Of a stretch of 64,000 nt of DNA, positions 3,522-51,482 are shown piece after piece. A model generated the notes under the pieces. It worked only from the letters and a program-made list of their open reading frames with translations. It was not told where the DNA came from and searched no databases. A program made the translations under genes and the position numbers. How positions within the stretch are numbered: position 1 is the stretch's first letter; each line of letters opens with the position of its first letter. The DNA is taken from IMG/VR virus record IMGVR_UViG_3300027575_000002, positions 1-64,000 of that record; one strand, given 5' to 3'. Origin of the DNA: a virus.

Positions 3522-3588
3522 CAGCTCGTAGCTCAATGGCAGAGCAGGACAAATGTCTTGGTTGTAGGTTCGAGTCCTACCGGGCCGA
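3522..3588 (+). tRNA. tRNA-like element with truncated anticodon arm (not a canonical tRNA)
   Basis: Acceptor CAGCTCG/CGGGCCG (6 of 7 pairs), D-arm GCTC-AATGGCA-GAGC, T-arm GTAGG-TTCGAGT-CCTAC. Only 18 nt lie between the D and T arms: AGGAC-AAAT-GTCTT is a 5-bp stem with a 4-nt loop, so there is no 7-nt anticodon loop. Confidence 0.4.
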
Positions 3589-3913: not shown

Positions 3914-4636
3914 ATGCATATGACAGCAACAGCAAACAAGCCGAGGTCAAAGCACACCCCGCTGGGTGGCGTGCAACTAGAGCAGCGCACCGCCGCCATA
4001 CACCGACTGGACAAGGCCGGGTTCACGCAGACGGAGATAGCCCTGCGCATAGGCACCTCGCAGGCCACCGTCCACTACCACCTGCGCAAGCTGGCCGAGG
4101 AGATGCGGACCTCGCGCATCAAGGACCGGGACGCCAACATAGACAGGCGCATCGCCGAGTTGCAGCTGGTCCGGCAGGAGGCGTGGGACGCCTGGGAGAA
4201 GAGCAAGCAGGACATGACCATGACCAAGCAGGAGCAGGGGCTGGTCAAGGTCTACAGCGAACCGGACGAGAATGGCAAGCGCCGCGCGGTGGGCGAGGAA
4301 TTGTCGCTCGTCAAGGTGATCGACTCCATCGAGAGCAGGCTACCCGGCTGCGAGTACCTCCAGGTCATGCGCCAGGCGACTATGGACATAGCCAAGTTGC
4401 AGGGGCTATTCGAGGACGTGACGAACAACAACACGCAGATCAACGTTAGCACCGGCCCTGCGCAGGTGGGGATATACCTGCCTGCCAACGGCCGCGATGT
4501 CGGAGGCTCTCCTTCAGGAGGTGCGGCGGCCATAGACATTTCCGCTCAAGATGTGACCGCGCCGATTGATTCTGACGCGGAGGTGGTAGAGTCTCCGGTT
4601 GACGACATTGAGGTACTGGAGAGGGACGAGGCATGA
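3914..4636 (+). CDS. candidate terminase small subunit (HTH protein)
   Basis: HTH-like GFTQTEIALRIGTSQATVHYHLRKL, coiled middle, acidic tail; lies just upstream of the large terminase. Confidence 0.5.
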   Translation: MHMTATANKPRSKHTPLGGVQLEQRTAAIHRLDKAGFTQTEIALRIGTSQATVHYHLRKLAEEMRTSRIKDRDANIDRRIAELQLVRQEAWDAWEKSKQDMTMTKQEQGLVKVYSEPDENGKRRAVGEELSLVKVIDSIESRLPGCEYLQVMRQATMDIAKLQGLFEDVTNNNTQINVSTGPAQVGIYLPANGRDVGGSPSGGAAAIDISAQDVTAPIDSDAEVVESPVDDIEVLERDEA

Positions 4637-4761
4637 CACCTATTGAAATGTACCTCAACGACCTGTCAGCGTGGGTATTCGGCTTGGGCACCGTCCGCGC
4701 ACCGTTGGTATACCGCGTCCTGTACCTACACCAGTGGAGTGATTCCTTCCAGGAGGTGTAG
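4633..4761 (+). CDS. small hypothetical protein
   Basis: 42 codons, ATGA overlap with upstream stop; ends 1 nt before the next start. Confidence 0.3.
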   Translation: MTPIEMYLNDLSAWVFGLGTVRAPLVYRVLYLHQWSDSFQEV

Positions 4762-4762
4762 C

Positions 4763-4957
4763 ATGTTTCGCAGGCCTTGGGGCGAGGACGACGACAAAGT
4801 GCTGCGCAGACTGCACTCCGCCGGTGCGAATGATGATACCATAGCCAGGGAGATGGGCCGTGGGCAGGACACGATTGCGAGCAAGCGCGGACGGCTTGGG
4901 TTGATCGCCAACAGGAGGAAGAACGTCAGGATAAAGGAGCCGATGAAGCAGTGCTGA
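4763..4957 (+). CDS. GcrA/Myb-like HTH protein (tentative)
   Basis: W-x7-L-x2-L...IAREMGRGQDTIASKRGRLGL resembles the N-terminal domain of GcrA-like regulators; SD AGGAGGTG. Confidence 0.45.
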   Translation: MFRRPWGEDDDKVLRRLHSAGANDDTIAREMGRGQDTIASKRGRLGLIANRRKNVRIKEPMKQC

Positions 4958-6414
4958 CCATTGCGCCAAAGCAGCGAGAGAGGCACCAGCGAACACCAGC
5001 GGAGGCCATACGCCCGCAGGGTGGCCCGCAGGAGAGGTTCCTCGCGTGTAGTGCCGACATATGCCTGTACGGTGGGAGCGCGGGGGGTGGCAAGACGTTC
5101 GCCTTGCTCATGGAGGCGGCGAGGCACATAGACAGGAGGGGGTACTCGGCGGTCATATTCAGGAGGACGTACCCGGAGGTGACACAGCCTGGGGGACTGT
5201 GGCCGGAGTCGATGAACTTGTATCCGCTGATGGACGCCAAGCCGAACGGCACGGAACTGTCGTGGAAGTTCCCGTCCGGAGCCAAGGTGCAGTTCGGACA
5301 CATACAGTATGCGAAGGACGTGCTGAGCTGGCGCGGGGCACAGATAGCCCTGATAGGGTTCGACCAGCTGGAGTCCTTCGAGGAGCAGCAGTTCTGGTAC
5401 CTGCTGTCGCGCAACCGCTCGACGTGCGGCGTGAGGCCGTACATCCGCGCGACCGCCAACCCGCAGCCTGGGTGGCTCGCGGACTTCATCGCGTGGTGGA
5501 TAGACCAGACTACCGGCTTCCCGATACCGGAGAGGTCAGGCGTGATACGGTGGATGGTGCGCAGGAACGACGACATAGTGTGGGGCGACGACCCGGCGGC
5601 ACTCCAGCAGGAGCACGGCACGACACCGAAGAGCGTGACGTTCATCGGTGCGAAGTTGACCGACAACCCTAAGCTGATGGAGGCGGACCCCGGATACCTC
5701 GCCAACCTGCAAGCGCTGCCGAGGATCGACAGGGAGCGACTGGAGAAGGGCAACTGGTCGGTCAGCAACAGCGAGTGCGAGTGGCCGGCGGAGTTCTTCG
5801 ACGGGATATTCTTCGACGAATGGCCGGAGAACTGGAGCACGTTCCGCAAGGTCATGGCACTGGACCCCAGTAAGGGCTCGGACAGCAGGACGGGCGACGA
5901 CTCCTCGTGGGCGATGCTCGCGGTGGACATGAGCAAGATGACGGCGTACTTCGACTTCGACATGGACAACAGGAGGCCGGTGGAGCCGCTGCCAAGCTCC
6001 CCAGGGATGCGCTCGATAGTCACGGACGGCATCGACCTGGCGGCGAGGTTCGGCCCGTGCGGTATCCTGATAGAGTCCAACGGGATGCAGGAGCTGATCG
6101 TGCTGCCGTTCATACGCTGGGCCACGCAGCGCGGGCTGCTGGTCCCGGTGTACCACAAGTGCAACACGGTCAACAAGGAGCTGCGCATCATAACCGGGTG
6201 GAACCCGCTGCTCGCCCAGCGGAGGGTCAAGGTCAAGAACACACCGGGGGGACGCAGGTGCATTCAGCAGCTCCGCGACTTCAAGCGCGACCAGAAGCCG
6301 TCCGCCGGGATACACGACGACGGGCCGGACTCCGGGGAGCTGGCGCTGGATATGTTTAATGAGACCTTAAGGCAGGTTGGCGTGCCTGCGGGAGTGTACG
6401 TATGCCAGGCGTGA
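4951..6414 (+). CDS. terL: terminase large subunit
   Basis: Walker A GGSAGGGKT, Walker B-like LIGFDQLESFEE, C-terminal nuclease-like region with conserved acidic residues; 487 aa. Confidence 0.9.
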   Translation: MLTIAPKQRERHQRTPAEAIRPQGGPQERFLACSADICLYGGSAGGGKTFALLMEAARHIDRRGYSAVIFRRTYPEVTQPGGLWPESMNLYPLMDAKPNGTELSWKFPSGAKVQFGHIQYAKDVLSWRGAQIALIGFDQLESFEEQQFWYLLSRNRSTCGVRPYIRATANPQPGWLADFIAWWIDQTTGFPIPERSGVIRWMVRRNDDIVWGDDPAALQQEHGTTPKSVTFIGAKLTDNPKLMEADPGYLANLQALPRIDRERLEKGNWSVSNSECEWPAEFFDGIFFDEWPENWSTFRKVMALDPSKGSDSRTGDDSSWAMLAVDMSKMTAYFDFDMDNRRPVEPLPSSPGMRSIVTDGIDLAARFGPCGILIESNGMQELIVLPFIRWATQRGLLVPVYHKCNTVNKELRIITGWNPLLAQRRVKVKNTPGGRRCIQQLRDFKRDQKPSAGIHDDGPDSGELALDMFNETLRQVGVPAGVYVCQA

Positions 6415-8924: not shown

Positions 8925-9964
8925 GTCTTCTCTATGCCCCTGGGGTAACCTCCAAGTCGATCACGGTTCAGATCGTCAACGACAGCGGCATTGGCGTGAC
9001 TGGACTGGTCGCAGCGACGTGGCCAACGGTCTACTACCAAATTTTTGGCGCGAACGCAGAAGTAGCTATAACGCTCAGCGATTTGGCGACGATCACGACG
9101 CCGTGGACTTCGGGCGCCGTCTACGAATTAAGTGGGGGATACTACAGACTCGACTTGCCTAATGCGGCCGTGGCGTCGGCAGGCAAAGTAAAGGTTTTCG
9201 CAGAGACTACCGGCAAGCACTTGATTGCAGAGACGCTTGCACCGGACTATCCGCAGATGGATGCGAGGCAGTGGGTCGGTACGACGATTCCCGCACCAAC
9301 GCAGACAGGGGTGCCGATCACTGATCCGCACTACTTCGGTGGGGTGGTAGGTACGTTTGCTGTTGGTATTCCGAGTGTAAACGCGACCCAAGTCCAGAAT
9401 GACCTGGATAACTTGCAAACAGTACCAGGGTCCGGCGTGTTTACAGTCGAGGCGGGTGTCAACTTTCCTGGTGGTTCCGGTAGTGCGGCGGTGTGGGAGC
9501 AGCTCCTGTCGTCGTCTGGGTTCAGCACTCCTGGTAGTATCGGTGCCCTGCTCAAGGAGGACATAACCGGAGTCCTGGCACTCCAGTCCCAGCTGTCCGG
9601 CGGTACGTTCACCATCGTTTCGCCCGTCGCGCAGAACGGCACAATAACGATAGTCAGCGGGGATGACTACAGTGCGGCAGACGGTCGGCAGATCATATTC
9701 ACCGGCGCGTCACCGAACGTGTGGCCGAACTTGACCGGGGCGAACATCGTCCTCGAAGTATATTCGCTGACATCTGATAGCATGGTGGTGGAGTTCCCCG
9801 CGTCCCCGCAGACGCCGACCGGCACTCAGGTAGTGTGGTGCACTCCCGCCAGTGTGCAGACGGGCCAACTGAAGCACGGCACGAGGTGGCAATACTACCT
9901 AGTGGCGACGCTGGCCGATAATACCATCGCGACCCTGGCGATAGGGTACTTGACCGTGGGATAA
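8921..9964 (+). CDS. hypothetical fibre-like protein
   Basis: 347 aa, overlaps upstream stop; Thr/Gly/Val-rich. Confidence 0.55.
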   Translation: MSLLYAPGVTSKSITVQIVNDSGIGVTGLVAATWPTVYYQIFGANAEVAITLSDLATITTPWTSGAVYELSGGYYRLDLPNAAVASAGKVKVFAETTGKHLIAETLAPDYPQMDARQWVGTTIPAPTQTGVPITDPHYFGGVVGTFAVGIPSVNATQVQNDLDNLQTVPGSGVFTVEAGVNFPGGSGSAAVWEQLLSSSGFSTPGSIGALLKEDITGVLALQSQLSGGTFTIVSPVAQNGTITIVSGDDYSAADGRQIIFTGASPNVWPNLTGANIVLEVYSLTSDSMVVEFPASPQTPTGTQVVWCTPASVQTGQLKHGTRWQYYLVATLADNTIATLAIGYLTVG

Positions 9965-9965
9965 T

Positions 9966-10193
9966 ATGATGAAGGCGACCGGACTCGGACACGCCAACGG
10001 GCTGAAGCAGGTGCTCCTCCCGATGTCGCAGGAGCATAGGTGGAGGTTCTTCATCAAGTACCTCCGAACCAGGAAGAGGGCGAATCAACGTGCCAAAGAA
10101 GACGCCATACGAGGTACTGGAAGTGCCGAAGTCTGCGGACAAGGAGGCAGTGAAGAGGGCGTACCGCAAGAAGTCGCACAAGACGCATCCTGA
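9966..10193 (+). CDS. small hypothetical protein (3' tail probably non-coding run-on)
   Basis: First ~40 codons have GC-rich third positions; this signal is lost after ~10085, where the J-domain frame takes over. Confidence 0.3.
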   Translation: MMKATGLGHANGLKQVLLPMSQEHRWRFFIKYLRTRKRANQRAKEDAIRGTGSAEVCGQGGSEEGVPQEVAQDAS

Positions 10194-10728
10194 CGCTGGC
10201 GGAGACGCCGAGGAGTTCAAGGCTGTGAACTCCGCGTACAGACTGCTCACCGACGACTCGCGGCGCGAGAGGTACGACGCGACGGGGGACGACGGCGAAG
10301 AGAGGGTCGTGCAGGACCACGAGGCGGAGGTGATTGGTCTTCTCGCCGCCGTATTCTCCGCAATACTGGAGGCGATGATCGCGCTAGACGGCGACCCAGG
10401 CGAACACGACTTGGTGGAGATGGCGAAGAAACAGCTTGCAGACGTGAAGCGGACCATCAAGGACCAGATGCACAAGATGCAGAAGCGCAAGGACAAACTG
10501 CTCAGGACCATCGATAGGATTGAGACCAGCAACGGCACAAACCACCTCCGCACCGTGGTCGAGCAGAAGTTGAACCAGATTGAACGGGACTTGCGCCGCG
10601 CCGAGATAGAGGTGCTGAAGGGCGAGGAGGCACTGAAGCTGCTCAAGAAGTTCAAGTACCGTAAGGACCAGACGATGGGCGCATACGGATGGATCACTAC
10701 GCAGGTAACGTCCGCGACAACCTATTGA
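10090..10728 (+). CDS. J-domain (DnaJ-like) co-chaperone
   Basis: PYEVLEVPKSADKEAVKRAYRKKSHKTHPDAGGD with the HPD tripeptide; C-terminal coiled-coil; GTG start. Confidence 0.8.
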   Translation: MPKKTPYEVLEVPKSADKEAVKRAYRKKSHKTHPDAGGDAEEFKAVNSAYRLLTDDSRRERYDATGDDGEERVVQDHEAEVIGLLAAVFSAILEAMIALDGDPGEHDLVEMAKKQLADVKRTIKDQMHKMQKRKDKLLRTIDRIETSNGTNHLRTVVEQKLNQIERDLRRAEIEVLKGEEALKLLKKFKYRKDQTMGAYGWITTQVTSATTY

Positions 10729-18033: not shown

Positions 18034-18062
18034 TTGCAATCAATTCCCCGATTGGTAATACT
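18034..18062 (+). promoter_or_regulatory. candidate late promoter TTGCAA-N16/17-TAATAC/AATACT
   Basis: Lies in the 205-nt gap upstream of the head gene block; the -10 is imperfect. Confidence 0.35.
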
Positions 18063-18081
18063 ACCCTAGCAACGAAAATTG

Positions 18082-18167
18082 GCGGCACGATCCCCGTGCT
18101 ACCTATCGATTGGCTTCACCCCGGAGTAGCTACCGGGTGAATGTCACAATAAATCGTGCCGCTTTTT
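18082..18167 (+). terminator. leader helix plus U-tract (candidate attenuator/terminator)
   Basis: GCGGCACGAT (18082-18091) pairs with ATCGTGCCGC (18153-18162), followed by TTTTT (18163-18167). A competing local hairpin is GCACG/CGTGC (18085-18099). Confidence 0.4.
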
Positions 18168-18181
18168 CTATTGGCTTCCAC

Positions 18182-19447
18182 ATGGCAGCAACCAAGCAAA
18201 GAGCAGGCAGAGTAATCGACCTCCTGGAGGACATCAACTACTCCGTGGCGGGCGGCGCGACAGTAGACCGGGCCGCGTCCTGCATACGCAACTGCAAGGT
18301 GCTCACCAAGTATTCGCCGAACAAGAACGGCATGGACGTGGAGGGCATGACCTACGACCCGACGTTCCACGCGCGGGTGCGCGACGCACTGGAGTCGGCG
18401 GTGGTGGTCAACATCGGGCACGCACCCAAGGGCGAGCCGGACCAAGTGCGCCACCCCCGCGAGCCGAACGGCGTGCTGATGCCGCCCAGCGGGGGGCAAC
18501 CCTCCGACCCACAAGAGACGCGGGCAGACTGGTACCTCAACAAAGACCACGACATGACGGCGCGGATACTCACCGCAGCCGAGTCGCCGCAAATCTCCAA
18601 GAAGCAATACACGCTGTCCATCAACGCGCGGGGGTACGGAGAGGTCGGCAGCGACCGCCGCTACCACATGATGGAGTTTGAGAACCCCGGACTGCGGTGC
18701 GCGGACCTAGTGACGCGCGGCGGGGCGGTAATCAACTTCCTTGAGGAGCGAGAGACCATGACGACCAAGCAAGTCCCCTTCAAGGAGATCGTGGCGCGGT
18801 GCATCGCCAAGCCGTGCAAGAACGCACCCAAGAACCTCAAGAAGGGGTGGACCGACCTGCTCGAAATGTACGAGGACATGGCCGAGACGAAGGTGGACGA
18901 TCCGGCACCCAAGGCGGACGCCGAGGCGGAGGACATGGATTGGAAGGCGCACCTCGGCAACCTGCTGAAGGCCATCGCCAACGACCCGGAGATGGAGCCG
19001 GAGATGATCCGCTCCAAGATCACGGCCGCGCTGAAGTGCCTCGACGAGGGAGAGGACAAGGGGACCACCGACGACGAAGAGGAGGGCGAGGACGTGAAGG
19101 ACAAGGGCGAGGAAAAGAAGAAGGAGGCGATGGAGGCGGCAGAACTCCAGCGCTACCGAGCCGAGAAGGGCGTCATCAACTTCTGCGAGCAGGCGGAGAA
19201 CGGTGGACCATACCAACCGACCTCAGACGAGGTGGACGCCCTGATCGGCGTCACCGACGAGGCGAAGCGCAGGAAGTTAGTCAAGAAGTTCAAAACGGCG
19301 AGGGGTGAGAAGGCCATCGGAACGTCCAGCTCCCGCGACGTGGTGGAGTCGCGCGAGACCGGCAAGGACAAGACGGCGAACCTCGACTTCAGCGACCGCG
19401 ACCCGGAGAAGCGAGACAAGCGACTCGCGGCCTTCGCGGTGCGGTAA
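18182..19447 (+). CDS. candidate prohead protease/scaffold fusion
   Basis: Lies before the capsid gene. VVVNIGHAP and YTLSINARGYG loosely resemble the His and Ser regions of HK97-type (S78) proteases. C-terminal half is acidic and coiled, like a scaffold. Confidence 0.45.
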   Translation: MAATKQRAGRVIDLLEDINYSVAGGATVDRAASCIRNCKVLTKYSPNKNGMDVEGMTYDPTFHARVRDALESAVVVNIGHAPKGEPDQVRHPREPNGVLMPPSGGQPSDPQETRADWYLNKDHDMTARILTAAESPQISKKQYTLSINARGYGEVGSDRRYHMMEFENPGLRCADLVTRGGAVINFLEERETMTTKQVPFKEIVARCIAKPCKNAPKNLKKGWTDLLEMYEDMAETKVDDPAPKADAEAEDMDWKAHLGNLLKAIANDPEMEPEMIRSKITAALKCLDEGEDKGTTDDEEEGEDVKDKGEEKKKEAMEAAELQRYRAEKGVINFCEQAENGGPYQPTSDEVDALIGVTDEAKRRKLVKKFKTARGEKAIGTSSSRDVVESRETGKDKTANLDFSDRDPEKRDKRLAAFAVR

Positions 19448-40168: not shown

Positions 40169-40203
40169 GCCAACCGCGTCGGTTGGAACGCTGGGTGAGG
40201 AAT

Positions 40204-40243
40204 GCCGGCATTGCGGGCCATTCCGCAATGCCGGCAATTTTTT
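40204..40243 (+). terminator. intrinsic terminator
   Basis: Perfect 13-bp stem GCCGGCATTGCGG/CCGCAATGCCGGC, 6-nt loop, then AATTTTTT. Confidence 0.8.
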
Positions 40244-46890: not shown

Positions 46891-47139
46891 TTAGGGCGAC
46901 GGCCGACTTCCCGTCTTGACCTTGAATCCGTGCTTTTTCCTGTGGCACGGCCTGCAATACAGCCATCCGGTCTTCGCGCTCCTGCCGCATACGATGCACA
47001 CGCCCGGCACTATCGGCTTGCTCGTTTCTGGCGCAGGGGTTGTGACCTTGATCGTGCGGCACTGTTTGCACCTGCGCTTGGACGCTCCTATCTTTTTCCT
47101 CTGACCGCATCCTGCGCACACCTTCATCTTCAGTCCCAT
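46891..47139 (-). CDS. basic multi-CxxC zinc-finger protein (first gene of leftward block)
   Basis: CAGCG...CKQC...CIVCG...CRPCH; 82 aa, very basic. Confidence 0.5.
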   Translation of the reverse strand: MGLKMKVCAGCGQRKKIGASKRRCKQCRTIKVTTPAPETSKPIVPGVCIVCGRSAKTGWLYCRPCHRKKHGFKVKTGSRPSP

Positions 47140-47526
47140 AACTTACTCATTCATTTACTTAGGTATTAAGTTATGTATGCAGCACGACCCCACCGCCTCC
47201 TCCCTCCCAACCTCCCCCCACCTCGAAATTGCGCGAGCGCAACTAACTAAGGTGGGTATGTGGGGGTATGGCGGGTGTATGGAGCGCTTACAGTACACAC
47301 AGCCGAACTGTAGGCTTGCGCGTTGCTCTTTCGTCGCTGAACTTCTCCCTTAGTGGGGCCAGATGCACGTCTGCTCCACACTCTTCCATTCCCACGGGAC
47401 TTTCACCCACAGGAGCCAGCGACTCACCCCACCTGGCCCGCGTTCAATAGTCGCTACGTGGTGATAGGGGACCACGGCGGCGCGGACGGGAGGACTTTTG
47501 TATCCCCACGATTCGGAGTACTGCGG

Positions 47527-47555
47527 TTGATTTCCGACAAGACATGCTGTATAAT
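47527..47555 (+). promoter_or_regulatory. near-consensus sigma70-type promoter TTGATT-N17-TATAAT
   Basis: -35 at 47527-47532, -10 at 47550-47555, 17-nt spacer. Confidence 0.6.
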
Positions 47556-47566
47556 GTGCTTGTCGG
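47534..47566. promoter_or_regulatory. operator-like inverted repeat CCGACAAG-N17-CTTGTCGG spanning the -10
   Basis: Perfect 8-bp arms at 47534-47541 and 47559-47566. Confidence 0.5.
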
Positions 47567-47575
47567 TATTTGTTC

Positions 47576-47615
47576 GTCCTGCCGGCTCATTCAAATGGCC
47601 GGCAGGACATTTTTA
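47576..47615 (+). terminator. promoter-proximal intrinsic terminator
   Basis: 11-bp stem GTCCTGCCGGC/GCCGGCAGGAC, 11-nt loop, then ATTTTT; starts ~20 nt after the -10. Confidence 0.65.
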
Positions 47616-48319: not shown

Positions 48320-48579
48320 AAAAAATCTACTCCCCCGCCGACTGGTTCGCACAACCCCGCACCGAACTGGTCCGTGGTATCGACTACACCTGCTCGCAGA
48401 CCTCCATCGTGCAGAAGGTGCGCAACGCCGCGTCGAAGCAGGGCGTCAGCGTGAGCGTGATAGACAACGGGGACAGGGTGGTGATATGGGTGAGGTCTAC
48501 AAAATCTTCGTGCCTAATTGGAGGCCAGTCAGGGACAACCAACTCACCGGTGCCCACCACTTCACCAAGCACAGGCTGA
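48316..48579 (+). CDS. hypothetical protein (3' tail runs into rusA frame overlap)
   Basis: ATGA coupling; the last ~30 codons overlap RusA and have weaker third-position GC. Confidence 0.35.
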   Translation: MKKIYSPADWFAQPRTELVRGIDYTCSQTSIVQKVRNAASKQGVSVSVIDNGDRVVIWVRSTKSSCLIGGQSGTTNSPVPTTSPSTG

Positions 48580-48860
48580 AGCGCGGCGACGCGGAGATGG
48601 TCACAGCGTATGCTAGGATGGCGGATATACCCAGGGCGACCACCAAGCGCAGGGTGTGGCTGGAGATAACCCTGGTCGGCAGGCAGCGCGAGTGCGACCC
48701 ACTGAGCTTTGCGAAGTCAACGCTCGACGCGCTCAAATTGTGCGGAATGCTGGTGGACGACAATTCCAAGTGGTGCGACCCGCTGTCGCCGTTCGCGCGG
48801 TACAATAGGAATGGTGAGGCTGGAACAACGATTGTTTTGGAAGACATCGAGGAGGTATAG
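48486..48860 (+). CDS. rusA: RusA-like Holliday junction resolvase
   Basis: DPLSFAKSTLDALKLCGMLVDDNSKW matches the RusA D-x-x-N/K...DD catalytic region; N-terminal YKIFVPNWRPVRDNQL. Confidence 0.7.
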   Translation: MGEVYKIFVPNWRPVRDNQLTGAHHFTKHRLKRGDAEMVTAYARMADIPRATTKRRVWLEITLVGRQRECDPLSFAKSTLDALKLCGMLVDDNSKWCDPLSPFARYNRNGEAGTTIVLEDIEEV

Positions 48861-48861
48861 C

Positions 48862-49050
48862 ATGCTGGTACTTTCACGCAGGGTGGGCGAGTCCGTAGTG
48901 CTGCGCGACCGCGACACTAACGAGGTGGTCGCCACCGTCAAGGTGGCGATGGTGGACGGTAGCAAGGTTCGCTTGGGGTTCGACGCACCGATGTCAATCC
49001 GCATCGACAGGGAGGAGATCGACCTGGAAATCAACGGAGCCACTCGATGA
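48862..49050 (+). CDS. csrA: CsrA/RsmA-family RNA-binding translational regulator
   Basis: MLVLSRRVGESVVL...KVRLGFDAPMSIRIDREEI aligns with CsrA (MLILTRRVGE...QVRIGVNAPKEVSVHREEI); 62 aa; SD GAGGAGG. Confidence 0.8.
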   Translation: MLVLSRRVGESVVLRDRDTNEVVATVKVAMVDGSKVRLGFDAPMSIRIDREEIDLEINGATR

Positions 49051-49226
49051 TTACACGCTGTGACGTATGCCTGATGTACTTCGAGGACGTGTACCGCAGT
49101 ACCATCTGCCCACACGCAGCATTCGCAGCGAACGACGGCGACAACTACTTCAGCGTGCACGACGACGCATACCTCAGCGAGTTACCGCAGGGCGAAGAAC
49201 AGGACGAGAATCAACAACAGCAATAG
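49047..49226 (+). CDS. small acidic Cys-containing protein
   Basis: 59 codons, ATGA coupling to csrA. Confidence 0.4.
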   Translation: MITRCDVCLMYFEDVYRSTICPHAAFAANDGDNYFSVHDDAYLSELPQGEEQDENQQQQ

Positions 49227-49242
49227 TCGGAGTACGGACGCT

Positions 49243-49821
49243 ATGCAGACACTTCAAACCGTAGACCACTACCAGCAGTGGCTGGACCACTACCGAAAGT
49301 GGCGAGGATGCACCAAGTGCCCCCTCCACAAGCAGCGCACCCGCATAGTTCTGGCAAGGGCGGCAAACGGCTTTCCGGCGGACCTGCTCTTCGTAGGGGA
49401 AGCCCCCGGTCAAAACGAGGACACCATCGGCCAGCCGTTCATGGGACCGGCCGGACAACTCCTCGACCAGATCGTCGAGCGCGCGGTGCCCGTGACCATG
49501 ACCACCGCGTACACAAACTTGTGCGCTTGCTTACCCAGGGAAGCCAAGAAGACCAACGACCACCGGCCTGAGAAGGCAGAGATCGAGGCGTGCCGACCGC
49601 GCTTGGACGAGATGCTGGAGATATGCTGTCCGCGCCTGGTGGTGTGTGTCGGCAAACTGGCTGCGGACTGGCTCAACGAAGACATGGAGCGGGCAGGGAC
49701 CAAGTACGTAAACATAGAACACCCGGCGTTCATACTCGCGCACATGCCTATGGCCCAAAAAGGTTTTGCGACCATGAAGTGCATAATTAAGATACGGAAC
49801 GCCATAGAGGATTTAGGATGA
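49243..49821 (+). CDS. uracil-DNA glycosylase, family 4
   Basis: CTKCPLH...LLFVGEAPGQNEDTIGQPFMGPAGQLL is the family-4 UDG signature. Confidence 0.85.
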   Translation: MQTLQTVDHYQQWLDHYRKWRGCTKCPLHKQRTRIVLARAANGFPADLLFVGEAPGQNEDTIGQPFMGPAGQLLDQIVERAVPVTMTTAYTNLCACLPREAKKTNDHRPEKAEIEACRPRLDEMLEICCPRLVVCVGKLAADWLNEDMERAGTKYVNIEHPAFILAHMPMAQKGFATMKCIIKIRNAIEDLG

Positions 49822-50033: not shown

Positions 50034-50410
50034 TGTTAAACTTAAATGACTACTTAAATAACTACTACGAGAAGGAAGAGGCTAAGGCTCTGATAGCAGT
50101 AGGAGCCACCGGCGGGTGCGTGGTTATTACCACTAACAGCGAGTGGTTGACGACAGAAATGAATGCTGTTGGGAGCTGCAGCGCTGATGACCTCGGCATC
50201 GATTACAGTGATTGCGACGCCGGGTTGTATCTGTGGGAAGGTACGCTAAAAACAGTGAATAGCGGACCTTGGGACTGCCCCGAACCGGAAACAGAAATCA
50301 TCGGCAAAGTCAGGGAAGTGCAGGTAAGCGAATTGCCATCACTTCTGAATATGTCACCGCCAGCACAATTACTCCTGGAGGACGGCGATGCCGATACTAG
50401 CAAGTCCTAG
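50030..50410 (+). CDS. hypothetical protein (low-GC gene)
   Basis: 126 aa; A/T-rich 5' end. Confidence 0.45.
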   Translation: MMLNLNDYLNNYYEKEEAKALIAVGATGGCVVITTNSEWLTTEMNAVGSCSADDLGIDYSDCDAGLYLWEGTLKTVNSGPWDCPEPETEIIGKVREVQVSELPSLLNMSPPAQLLLEDGDADTSKS

Positions 50411-51482
50411 CATCAATCTCACCGATGAGCAGAACGACGCCATACACTACCTCACCACCAGCAAGGACCAAGTGAGAAAAATGGGTGGGTACGGAGGCAC
50501 GGGGAAGTCAACCATCGTAAGGGAGCTAGCGAGACGACTTCCGCATTGTGCAGTGTGCACGTTCACGGGCAAGGCAGCGCAGGTGCTCCGCAAGAAGGGA
50601 GTCCCGGCGTCCACGATCCACTCGCTGATCTATACCCCGACAAAAGACCCGGACACGGGCAAGGTGGTGTTCACCCTCCGACCGCCGTGGGAGTTCGCAG
50701 CGCAGACGATCCTCGTGGACGAGGCCAGCATGGTCAACAAGCGGCTGGACGCGGACCTGCGGTCGTTCGGCGCGCCGATCGTCTACATAGGAGACCACGG
50801 ACAGCTGGAGCCGGTTGGAGGTGAGGACTTCAGCCTCATGGCAAAGCCTGACATCACACTTGAGAAGATTCACCGCAATGCGGGCGAAATAGCGTACTTC
50901 GCCCAACACCTGCGCGAGGGCAATAACGCGAAGGACTGGGACGCGGAAAAGATGTTGGATGGTAGCGAGCACGAACTTGGCAAGGTCGAGATAGTCACCG
51001 CCAATCAACTCGGGGACCTCGCAATCACCGAAGACGACCAGCTAATATGTGCGTTCAACCGGACGCGGTGTGACCTAAACAGCGCAGTACGCCAGCACCT
51101 CGGCAAGCCACAGGGCACACCGGTAGAGGGCGACCGCGTGATATGCCTACAGAACAGCAGGGAGTACGCACTGTTCAACGGCATGATGGGGACCATCGCC
51201 AACCTGTACGACGACAAGGACGAGATGGTGTTCGAGTCCGGCGACTTCCGAGTGCGCGTCGGCTTCAACAGGGAGGCCTTCGGCGCGGAGAAGAAGCCAG
51301 AGCACAGCTGGCAGGACATCCCCTTCGACTGGGCATACTGTATCACGTGCCACAAGGCGCAGGGCGACGAGTTCGAGCACGCAATCGTGGTGGAGCAGAG
51401 GTGCAGCAAATGGAGCCATTCTCGCTGGAGTTATACTGCGGCGAGCCGCGCAAAGAATAAGTTGACGTGGGTACTAGCATGA
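50388..51482 (+). CDS. Dda/RecD-like SF1 helicase
   Basis: GGYGGTGKST, ILVDEASMV, IGDHGQLEPVG, ITCHKAQGDEFEHAIVV, YTAASRAKNKL. Confidence 0.8.
   Translation: MPILASPSINLTDEQNDAIHYLTTSKDQVRKMGGYGGTGKSTIVRELARRLPHCAVCTFTGKAAQVLRKKGVPASTIHSLIYTPTKDPDTGKVVFTLRPPWEFAAQTILVDEASMVNKRLDADLRSFGAPIVYIGDHGQLEPVGGEDFSLMAKPDITLEKIHRNAGEIAYFAQHLREGNNAKDWDAEKMLDGSEHELGKVEIVTANQLGDLAITEDDQLICAFNRTRCDLNSAVRQHLGKPQGTPVEGDRVICLQNSREYALFNGMMGTIANLYDDKDEMVFESGDFRVRVGFNREAFGAEKKPEHSWQDIPFDWAYCITCHKAQGDEFEHAIVVEQRCSKWSHSRWSYTAASRAKNKLTWVLA

Follow-up and report, generated by a model that had tools for sequence, protein, structure and literature searches.

The csrA-like gene and its operon

The window (the whole stretch of 64,000 nucleotides of viral DNA analysed here) encodes a portal protein, a head(-maturation) protease, a primase, a family-A DNA polymerase (PolA), methyltransferases and a RecD-like helicase and, judged by this gene content, comes from a tailed phage that is uncultured and has a GC content of ~60%. 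Among the window proteins that were scanned, no integrase was found. A phage-encoded DnaJ (J) domain protein is present at 10090-10728 (+) with E = 5e-18. The region 18036-18182 (+) contains a promoter-like TTGCAA...TAATAC and, 3′ of it, a long hairpin, in which GGCGGCACGAT (18082) pairs with ATCGTGCCGC (18163), ending in UUUUUCU. This hairpin, with a fold z-score of −2.3, is located just 5′ of the ATG at 18183, i.e., at the head of the late/structural block, and the layout of the region resembles a late promoter followed by a terminator that is read through by an antiterminator. A strong terminator, consisting of a 15-bp stem and a T run (40203-40236), lies between the ends of the rightward structural block and of a leftward operon.

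The csrA-like gene is part of a series of rightward genes reaching from ~47.7 kb to at least 58 kb, which comprises two genes for 97-aa proteins, a RusA-like gene, csrA, a gene for a small Cys protein, a family-4 uracil-DNA glycosylase (UDG), the RecD-like helicase, an AAA_24 protein, a 420-aa protein and PolA (Table 1). The preliminary description had placed csrA in an early operon, between RusA and a family-4 UDG. The operon was recovered as a rightward replication ('early/middle') operon 3′ of a sigma-70-like promoter, and the UDG is firm, whereas RusA is a weak PHROG match; no Pfam or PDB match was obtained for the RusA-like protein. No strong terminator was found between the promoter at 47527 and ~55.7 kb. 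The label 'early/replication operon' is a fair description of the surroundings of csrA, and it is the placement of csrA inside replication operons that argues for early expression.

The head of the operon contains other possible control elements. The candidate promoter and the hairpin located within ~20 nt of it look like a promoter-proximal terminator or attenuator (47527-47612). A minus-strand promoter-like sequence, TTGAAA-18-TATAGT (47644 to 47615), overlaps the region of the promoter-proximal hairpin. In the divergent control region at 47255-47282 (+), GG(G/T)GTATGG-like repeats stand in tandem at a spacing of 11 nt (47262-47271 and 47273-47282) and may be operator or iteron sites. The product of the first leftward gene, 46891-47139 (−), is a basic protein of 82 aa that has four CxxC pairs and is probably a zinc-finger regulator. 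This gene is without an evident Shine-Dalgarno (SD) sequence and is preceded by a G-rich tract (47188-47224) and a 14-bp palindrome, TTGCGCGAGCGCAA, at ~47229-47242.

Table 1. Features at and around the csrA-like gene, with positions in the window
Feature	Position	Strand	Basis or remark
Sigma-70-like promoter TTGATT-17-TATAAT, candidate for the csrA-bearing rightward operon	47527-47555	+	10/12 consensus matches, best of the region
Perfect 11-bp GC-rich hairpin, then AUUUUUA, directly 3′ of the promoter	47576-47608 (arms 47576-47586 / 47598-47608)	+	Possible attenuator/terminator
Upstream gene, 124 aa, weakly RusA-like	48486-48860	+	phrog_1682, E = 5.8e-5
SD sequence GAGGAGG of csrA	48849-48855	+	Read from the sequence; 6 nt 5′ of the ATG; contains one GGA
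csrA-like gene, 62 aa, CsrA/RsmA family	48862-49050	+	Pfam, PHROG and PDB matches, AF2/Foldseek
Insertion codons, residues 16-21 (DRDTNE)	48907-48924	+	Alignments; flanked by AF2 strands 11-15 and 22-32
59-aa CxxC...CPH protein, neighbour of csrA	49047-49226	+	ATG overlaps the csrA stop (ATGA, 49047-49050)
Family-4 UDG	49243-49821	+	Pfam UDG, E = 1.2e-23; best PDB matches are family-4 (4zbx, 1ui0, 8ii* 'Type-4')
RecD-like SF1 helicase, synteny anchor	50388-51482	+	Pfam AAA_30 and UvrD_C_2

The csrA-like ORF runs from the ATG at 48862 to the TGA at 49048-49050, and its product is MLVLSRRVGESVVLRDRDTNEVVATVKVAMVDGSKVRLGFDAPMSIRIDREEIDLEINGATR. The gene 5′ of it ends with TAG at 48858-48860. The GC content of csrA is 60.3%, compared with 59.8% for the whole window, and its GC3 is 0.78. 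Both GC and GC3 are the same as those of the neighbouring genes, indicating that csrA is not a fresh acquisition. Judged by the strong SD sequence, the canonical MLxL start at the ATG and the composition, csrA looks like a settled, expressed gene.

Family membership, predicted fold and RNA-binding residues

The ORF had been described as a homologue of CsrA/RsmA with an internal insertion of a few residues, and a profile search with PF02599 had been proposed as a check. This search gave a match of 50.8 bits (gathering score 27) with E = 1.7e-13, covering profile positions 1-51 of 53. The identification was also borne out by PHROG 9500, 'CsrA-like regulator' (E = 5.3e-13), by PDB matches and by the predicted fold. 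With this profile match and its location on a phage genome, the protein belongs to the phage CsrA-like regulators of PHROG 9500. Matches were also obtained to nine solved CsrA/RsmA/RsmE sequences with E values of 1.6e-6 to 4e-3, the best being the solved E. coli CsrA 1y00 (E = 1.6e-6). The NCBIfam equivalog cut-offs of TIGR00202 and NF002469 were not reached (51.0 bits versus 70.1 and 49.6 bits versus 73, respectively). This means that the protein is a divergent family member rather than an orthologue-grade CsrA. Taken together, these matches confirm, at the level of sequence, that the ORF is a real but divergent phage copy of the bacterial translation regulator CsrA.

The AF2 monomer, obtained from an alignment of 17 sequences, has a mean pLDDT of 83 and displays the fold of five strands and a C-terminal helix within ~60 residues. 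The predicted strands span residues 11-15, 22-32 and 35-41, and the helix spans 51-61, while beta1 and beta5, at the two ends of the chain, are left unpaired, as is expected where these strands pair with the other subunit in a swapped arrangement. In a Foldseek search of the PDB, ranks 1-14 were all occupied by CsrA, RsmA or RsmE with a probability of 1.00 and TM values of 0.57-0.65, and there was no other significant match.

The residues were compared in an alignment of 20 sequences, consisting of the window protein, 16 database homologues and three model CsrAs and including the E. coli, Pseudomonas and Bacillus types. M1, L2, L4, R6, V36, G39 and R50 are invariant in this alignment. R50 of the window protein corresponds to R44 of E. 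coli CsrA, and I46, I48 and I53 are conservative replacements for E. coli V40, V42 and I47. In a review of mutational and structural work on CsrA, L4 and R44 are singled out as most critical to the binding of RNA, and each of the two surfaces that bind RNA is built by beta1 of one subunit and beta5 of the other (PMC7652899). Both critical residues, as L4 and R50, are kept in the window protein.

With the bacterial proteins, such as E. coli CsrA (1y00), P. aeruginosa RsmA (1vpz) and P. fluorescens RsmE-hcnA (2jpp), the window protein shares the family and the fold, the N-terminal MLxLxR, the C-terminal (V/I)x(V/I)xREE(I/L), the VRxG and AP motifs and the short C-terminal helix. It differs from them by an identity of 39-45%, by six extra residues in the beta2-beta3 turn, by the score below equivalog level, by Phe in 'RLGF' where enterics carry Val or Ile, and by Asp (D49) at the position of E. 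coli H43. In addition, the gene resides in a phage replication operon while bacterial csrA resides at a chromosomal locus.

The insertion that had been noticed earlier is thus real and amounts to six residues, D16-E21, in the beta2-beta3 turn, as evident from the HMMER alignment to 1y00, the homologue alignment and the AF2 model. From Met1 to the V(R/K)xG motif, the window protein has a distance of 35, compared with 28-30 in all others (89 CsrA sequences; 19 viral and 82 genomic loci). Among 80 JGI metagenome matches, the canonical distance was found in 71, and the others have 1-4 extra residues except for one (L218), which also has six. The motif SVVLxDxxTN[DE] is common to the window protein and to a viral CsrA-like protein (L189), with which it aligns gap-free across the insertion at 44% identity over 54 residues. 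From these alignments, the beta2-beta3 turn is a known-variable spot, and the long form is rare, not unique. The insertion and D49 could alter the behaviour of the protein.

Relatives of the phage and neighbours of csrA

Identity to the window was found for part of a 67.7-kb contig of an ENA metagenome and for a 4.6-kb JGI contig, and the other copies found of this phage (L020 and L021) are 100% identical. A megablast search of 50,697 deposited phage genomes gave no DNA-level relative of the window, and a tblastn search of the same genomes with the CsrA-like protein gave no similarity at E ≤ 1e-3. The polymerase shares at most 28% identity with any deposited phage. In IMG/VR, no relative was found of the RusA-like gene, of the small Cys gene or of the helicase as a single-sequence query, and there were two partial relatives only of the UDG; distant relatives were found with an alignment of the helicase. 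The CsrA-like protein is at most 49% identical to the viral copies in IMG/VR. Among cellular CsrAs, even the closest do not exceed 58% identity, and they are spread over Planctomycetota, Bdellovibrionota, Actinomycetota and Legionella, the best protein match (P0002, 58%) standing in a chromosomal TatA-CsrA-response-regulator context. Assignment of a host by means of the nearest cellular CsrAs was rejected, as the matches come from a scatter of unrelated phyla and reach no more than 54% identity (58% for the best protein match).

Homologues of the helicase with 50-57% identity are found on contigs of 72-94 kb. Four of the related loci (L126, L127, L128 and L131) have the layout of the window, with a large leftward gene, a divergent region, UDG, helicase, AAA_24, the 420-aa protein and PolA at 28-57% amino acid identity, and all four are without csrA and without the small Cys gene. 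In two others, L129 (an NCBI MAG contig; 9541-9720) and L132 (463-657), csrA is located directly 5′ of AAA_24 and overlaps its start. By gene order, csrA has another insertion point in this operon. The relatives differ from one another in the stretch from the divergent promoters to the UDG gene. The absence of csrA from four syntenic relatives and its presence elsewhere in the same operon in two make it an accessory gene, and the four relatives without it indicate that it is dispensable for the lineage.

Of 85 viral or metagenomic loci anchored on the helicase, 6 contain a CsrA domain, always on the strand of the helicase and within ~2.5 kb of it. This frequency is not strictly comparable with that of a 2020 survey, in which csrA was present in 30 of 2,517 phage genomes (PMC7366521). 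Elsewhere, csrA occurs just 5′ of a UDG-PolA fusion (L005) and near AAA_24 (L018/L019), in each case co-directional in the replication module. These gene orders indicate that csrA has entered phage replication operons more than once. One viral record (L002, IMGVR_UViG_3300029267_003963) apparently contains two separate CsrA-domain ORFs ~3 kb apart (4606-6189 and 9337-9738).

The gene directly 3′ of csrA deserves separate treatment, since the preliminary description had suggested it as a partner or antagonist of CsrA. The ATGA overlap of csrA with this 59-codon ORF stands on the sequence. A word-indexed search gave one homologue of the small Cys protein, whereas an exhaustive HMMER search gave 145 representative clusters, of which 21 have E ≤ 1e-10. 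The family has an N-terminal domain of ~45 residues in which C5, R17, C21, H23, F26 and N29 are invariant and C8 and P22 near-invariant. From this pattern the domain looks like a small zinc-binding module. No model of this family was found in Pfam or PHROGs. Its signature reads CxxC...R...CPH..F.ANDG.N.F; fusions to DUF3850/ASCH or an Acb2/Tad1 hairpin domain occur in single members, and the domain is present 5-7 times in two giant proteins.

The suggested partnership with CsrA was not supported. CsrA was found beside the small Cys family in none of 20 family loci (within 3-4 kb), and the family was found beside CsrA in none of 19 CsrA-bearing viral loci, nor in any of the 85 helicase-anchored loci. 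On the contigs of the closest homologue, the gene that precedes the small Cys gene encodes an unrelated protein of 149 aa or more, and in L117/L118 the small Cys gene is located ~400 nt 5′ of UDG without CsrA. A two-gene module of CsrA and the small Cys protein was rejected on these counts. With no co-occurrence in 39 other loci (20 + 19), the pairing in the window is incidental, and the ATGA overlap is ordinary phage gene packing.

CsrA homologues of phages have been catalogued in 2020-21 (PMC7366521; PMC8450108, in which GenBank and IMG/VR were searched with PF02599) and noted in individual genomes (PMC10269572), and phage csrA genes were described by Sobrero and Valverde in 2020, Campa in 2021 and Adler in 2025. 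Like the window, the tailed phages Burkholderia DC1 and CSP3, Pseudomonas F116 and those of the RsmM type, Serratia Parlo and PTXU04 (gp28) carry a small gene of the CsrA family, grouped in PHROG 9500 (PMC7366521, PMC8450108, PMC10269572, PMC11879866). In CSP3, csrA is located by the capsid gene as a 'moron', whereas in the window it is within the replication operon. L189 (IMGVR_UViG_3300007072_000007, 10055-10276), which carries the same insertion motif, has its csrA-like gene ~1 kb 3′ of a related RecD-like helicase. Its protein is more degenerate than that of the window, with V4 for L4, N7 for R7 and ISVS for VRLG, and scored 20.5 bits on the CsrA profile built here. Accessory CsrAs are also carried by other mobile elements, namely CsrT of Legionella and the CsrA of pMBA19a in Sinorhizobium, and are thought to tune the expression of element or host (PMC7366521). 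These plasmid and ICE carriers are another type of element, and the window has no type IV secretion context.

Evidently, the csrA of the window is a further divergent example of known phage CsrA and reveals no new mechanism or family. What it adds is a very divergent CsrA of an uncultured lineage of phages, a loop insertion that is rarely seen and the occurrence of csrA as an accessory gene at different positions of the replication operon. A comparison set is now defined, comprising relatives with csrA, without csrA and with csrA at another position.

GGA motifs and the proposed function

The window makes wide use of strong SD sequences, as had been stated in the preliminary description. An SD core of at least 4 nt, GGAG-type and hence GGA-containing, precedes 60 of 79 crude gene calls. 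A minus-strand tract with four GGA motifs had moreover been singled out in the divergent control region. The tract is indeed present at 47188-47224, GAGGTGGGGGGAGGTTGGGAGGGAGGAGGCGGTGGGG, but its status as a special CsrA target did not hold. Four GGAs in 37 nt occur in 58 clusters in the window, where a Markov-2 model predicts 31 on the plus strand and 3.7 on the minus strand; the fold z-score of the tract is −0.75, which is not significant, and its GGAs are not in hairpin loops. The tract was rejected as a CsrA target or sponge since it is not rarer than many other clusters, is without a fold and does not present its GGAs in loops.

Leaders (−60 to +12) contain on average 2.2 GGAs, compared with 1.7 in coding windows of equal length (72 nt), and this excess is about what one SD sequence per leader adds. 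The leaders of replication-operon and late genes do not differ significantly, either in GGA (p = 0.18) or in hairpin-presented GGA (p = 0.085). The csrA leader itself has four GGAs within 60 nt, of which two may be placed in the loops of short hairpins and one is part of the SD sequence. The SD GGA (48849-48855) together with a second GGA at 48839-48841, potentially in the loop of a short hairpin, is possibly an autoregulatory site, a candidate read from the sequence.

Regulators of CsrA activity were sought as well. No Csr/Rsm family of Rfam was found in the window, either at the gathering score or at E ≤ 1, and none of the intergenic GGA clusters in the window stands out; a novel sponge RNA beyond these Rfam families could still be encoded. 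The only element returned was a tRNA-like one at 3522-3588 (+), which matches the Rfam tRNA model with 45.5 bits (gathering score 29) and was not called by ARAGORN. Its acceptor, D and T arms are intact, but it has 2 nt in place of the 7-nt anticodon loop and hence cannot decode. No FliW was recognised in the preliminary description, and this still stands for the part of the ORFs covered by a Pfam scan of 28 window proteins and a Pfam table for 25 genes. The CsrA-like protein ends 12 residues after R50; a FliW partner switch, which combines a FliW gene with a C-terminally extended CsrA, is thus not apparent here.

In our judgement, the gene probably encodes a working CsrA-type RNA-binding dimer, which is made early along with the replication proteins and alters translation, the host Csr programme being its most likely target. 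Transcription would take place together with the DNA-replication genes of the rightward operon, and translation would start from the GAGGAGG site of the gene itself. If the solved CsrA proteins are a guide, the product would form a domain-swapped homodimer, and the beta1/beta5 edges (L2, L4, R6 and R7; I46, I48, R50 and I53) would bind GGA in single-stranded or hairpin-loop RNA, typically over SD sequences, thereby altering the translation or stability of the bound mRNAs. Soon after infection this could bring about a takeover of the host, since CsrA activity would then lie outside the host's own controls, and the post-transcriptional programme of the host, including metabolism, motility and possibly defence genes, might be re-set. 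The phage CsrA may also repress its own translation. In the literature searched, functional data on phage csrA are confined to E. coli phage PTXU04, in which knock-down of the csrA homologue led to smaller plaques (PMC11879866), and this finding indicates that a phage CsrA can matter to a phage. To be weighed along with the host-takeover proposal are the scatter of the nearest cellular CsrAs, the four syntenic relatives without csrA and the score below the equivalog cut-off. The functions considered here and below are not separable by sequence alone.

RegA of phage T4 is a small protein encoded among replication genes, which represses the translation of early mRNAs at their initiation regions. 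There is no sequence or fold relationship between RegA and the window protein; by a conjectural analogy, however, the phage CsrA might be directed at the phage itself. It would bind the GGA-containing SD sequences of early and replication mRNAs of the phage, including its own, and on accumulation shut off their translation, thus aiding the change from replication to late expression. We consider this possible but unlikely. Consistent with it are the invariably co-directional location of csrA within the replication operon, both in the window and in several further lineages of phages, the GGAG-type SD sequences of 60 of the 79 genes, the arrangement of GGAs in the csrA leader and the fact that E. 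coli CsrA autoregulates its own translation (PMC7652899). Nevertheless, the replication and late leaders are not significantly different, and their GGA content barely exceeds the background. Late genes have the same SD sequences, which leaves the specificity unexplained, and close relatives with the same operon layout are without csrA. An extension of this idea is that CsrA has been repeatedly captured into the replication operons of ~65-90-kb phages with PolA and a RecD-like helicase as a RegA-like repressor, which reads the GGA of GGAGG sites and times the shut-off of early and replication genes, with the insertion form (window and L189) as a phage-adapted subfamily. We put this forward as quite doubtful speculation.

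Repression of host immune genes, e.g., CRISPR-Cas, at the level of translation would be another use of a phage CsrA, for which early expression would be suitable. RsmA of Serratia binds cas mRNAs and represses three CRISPR-Cas systems, and phage RsmA homologues were proposed to be anti-CRISPR-like (Campa et al., PMC8450108). Even for the phages where it was proposed this role is hypothetical, and nothing in the window bears on it, so we regard it as distinctly improbable here.

The phage protein could also act on the host CsrA instead of regulating mRNAs directly, namely by forming mixed dimers with it or by taking up the host Csr/Rsm sponge RNAs, and so shift the amount of free host CsrA. Heterodimers are conceivable as the CsrA fold is an interleaved dimer (PMC7652899), and the rare beta2-beta3 insertion could tune such interactions. 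All of the RNA-binding residues are intact, though, which is unexpected for a pure poison subunit, and no Csr/Rsm-type sRNA was found in the window; this mode of action is most improbable.

That csrA is a passenger without any role in infection, as its lack in the four syntenic relatives and the variability of the promoter-to-UDG region could suggest, is scarcely credible for an intact ORF with every family-invariant residue, a strong SD sequence and host-like composition, given that CsrA was repeatedly acquired in the same kind of operon and that a csrA homologue affects plaque size in another phage (PMC11879866).
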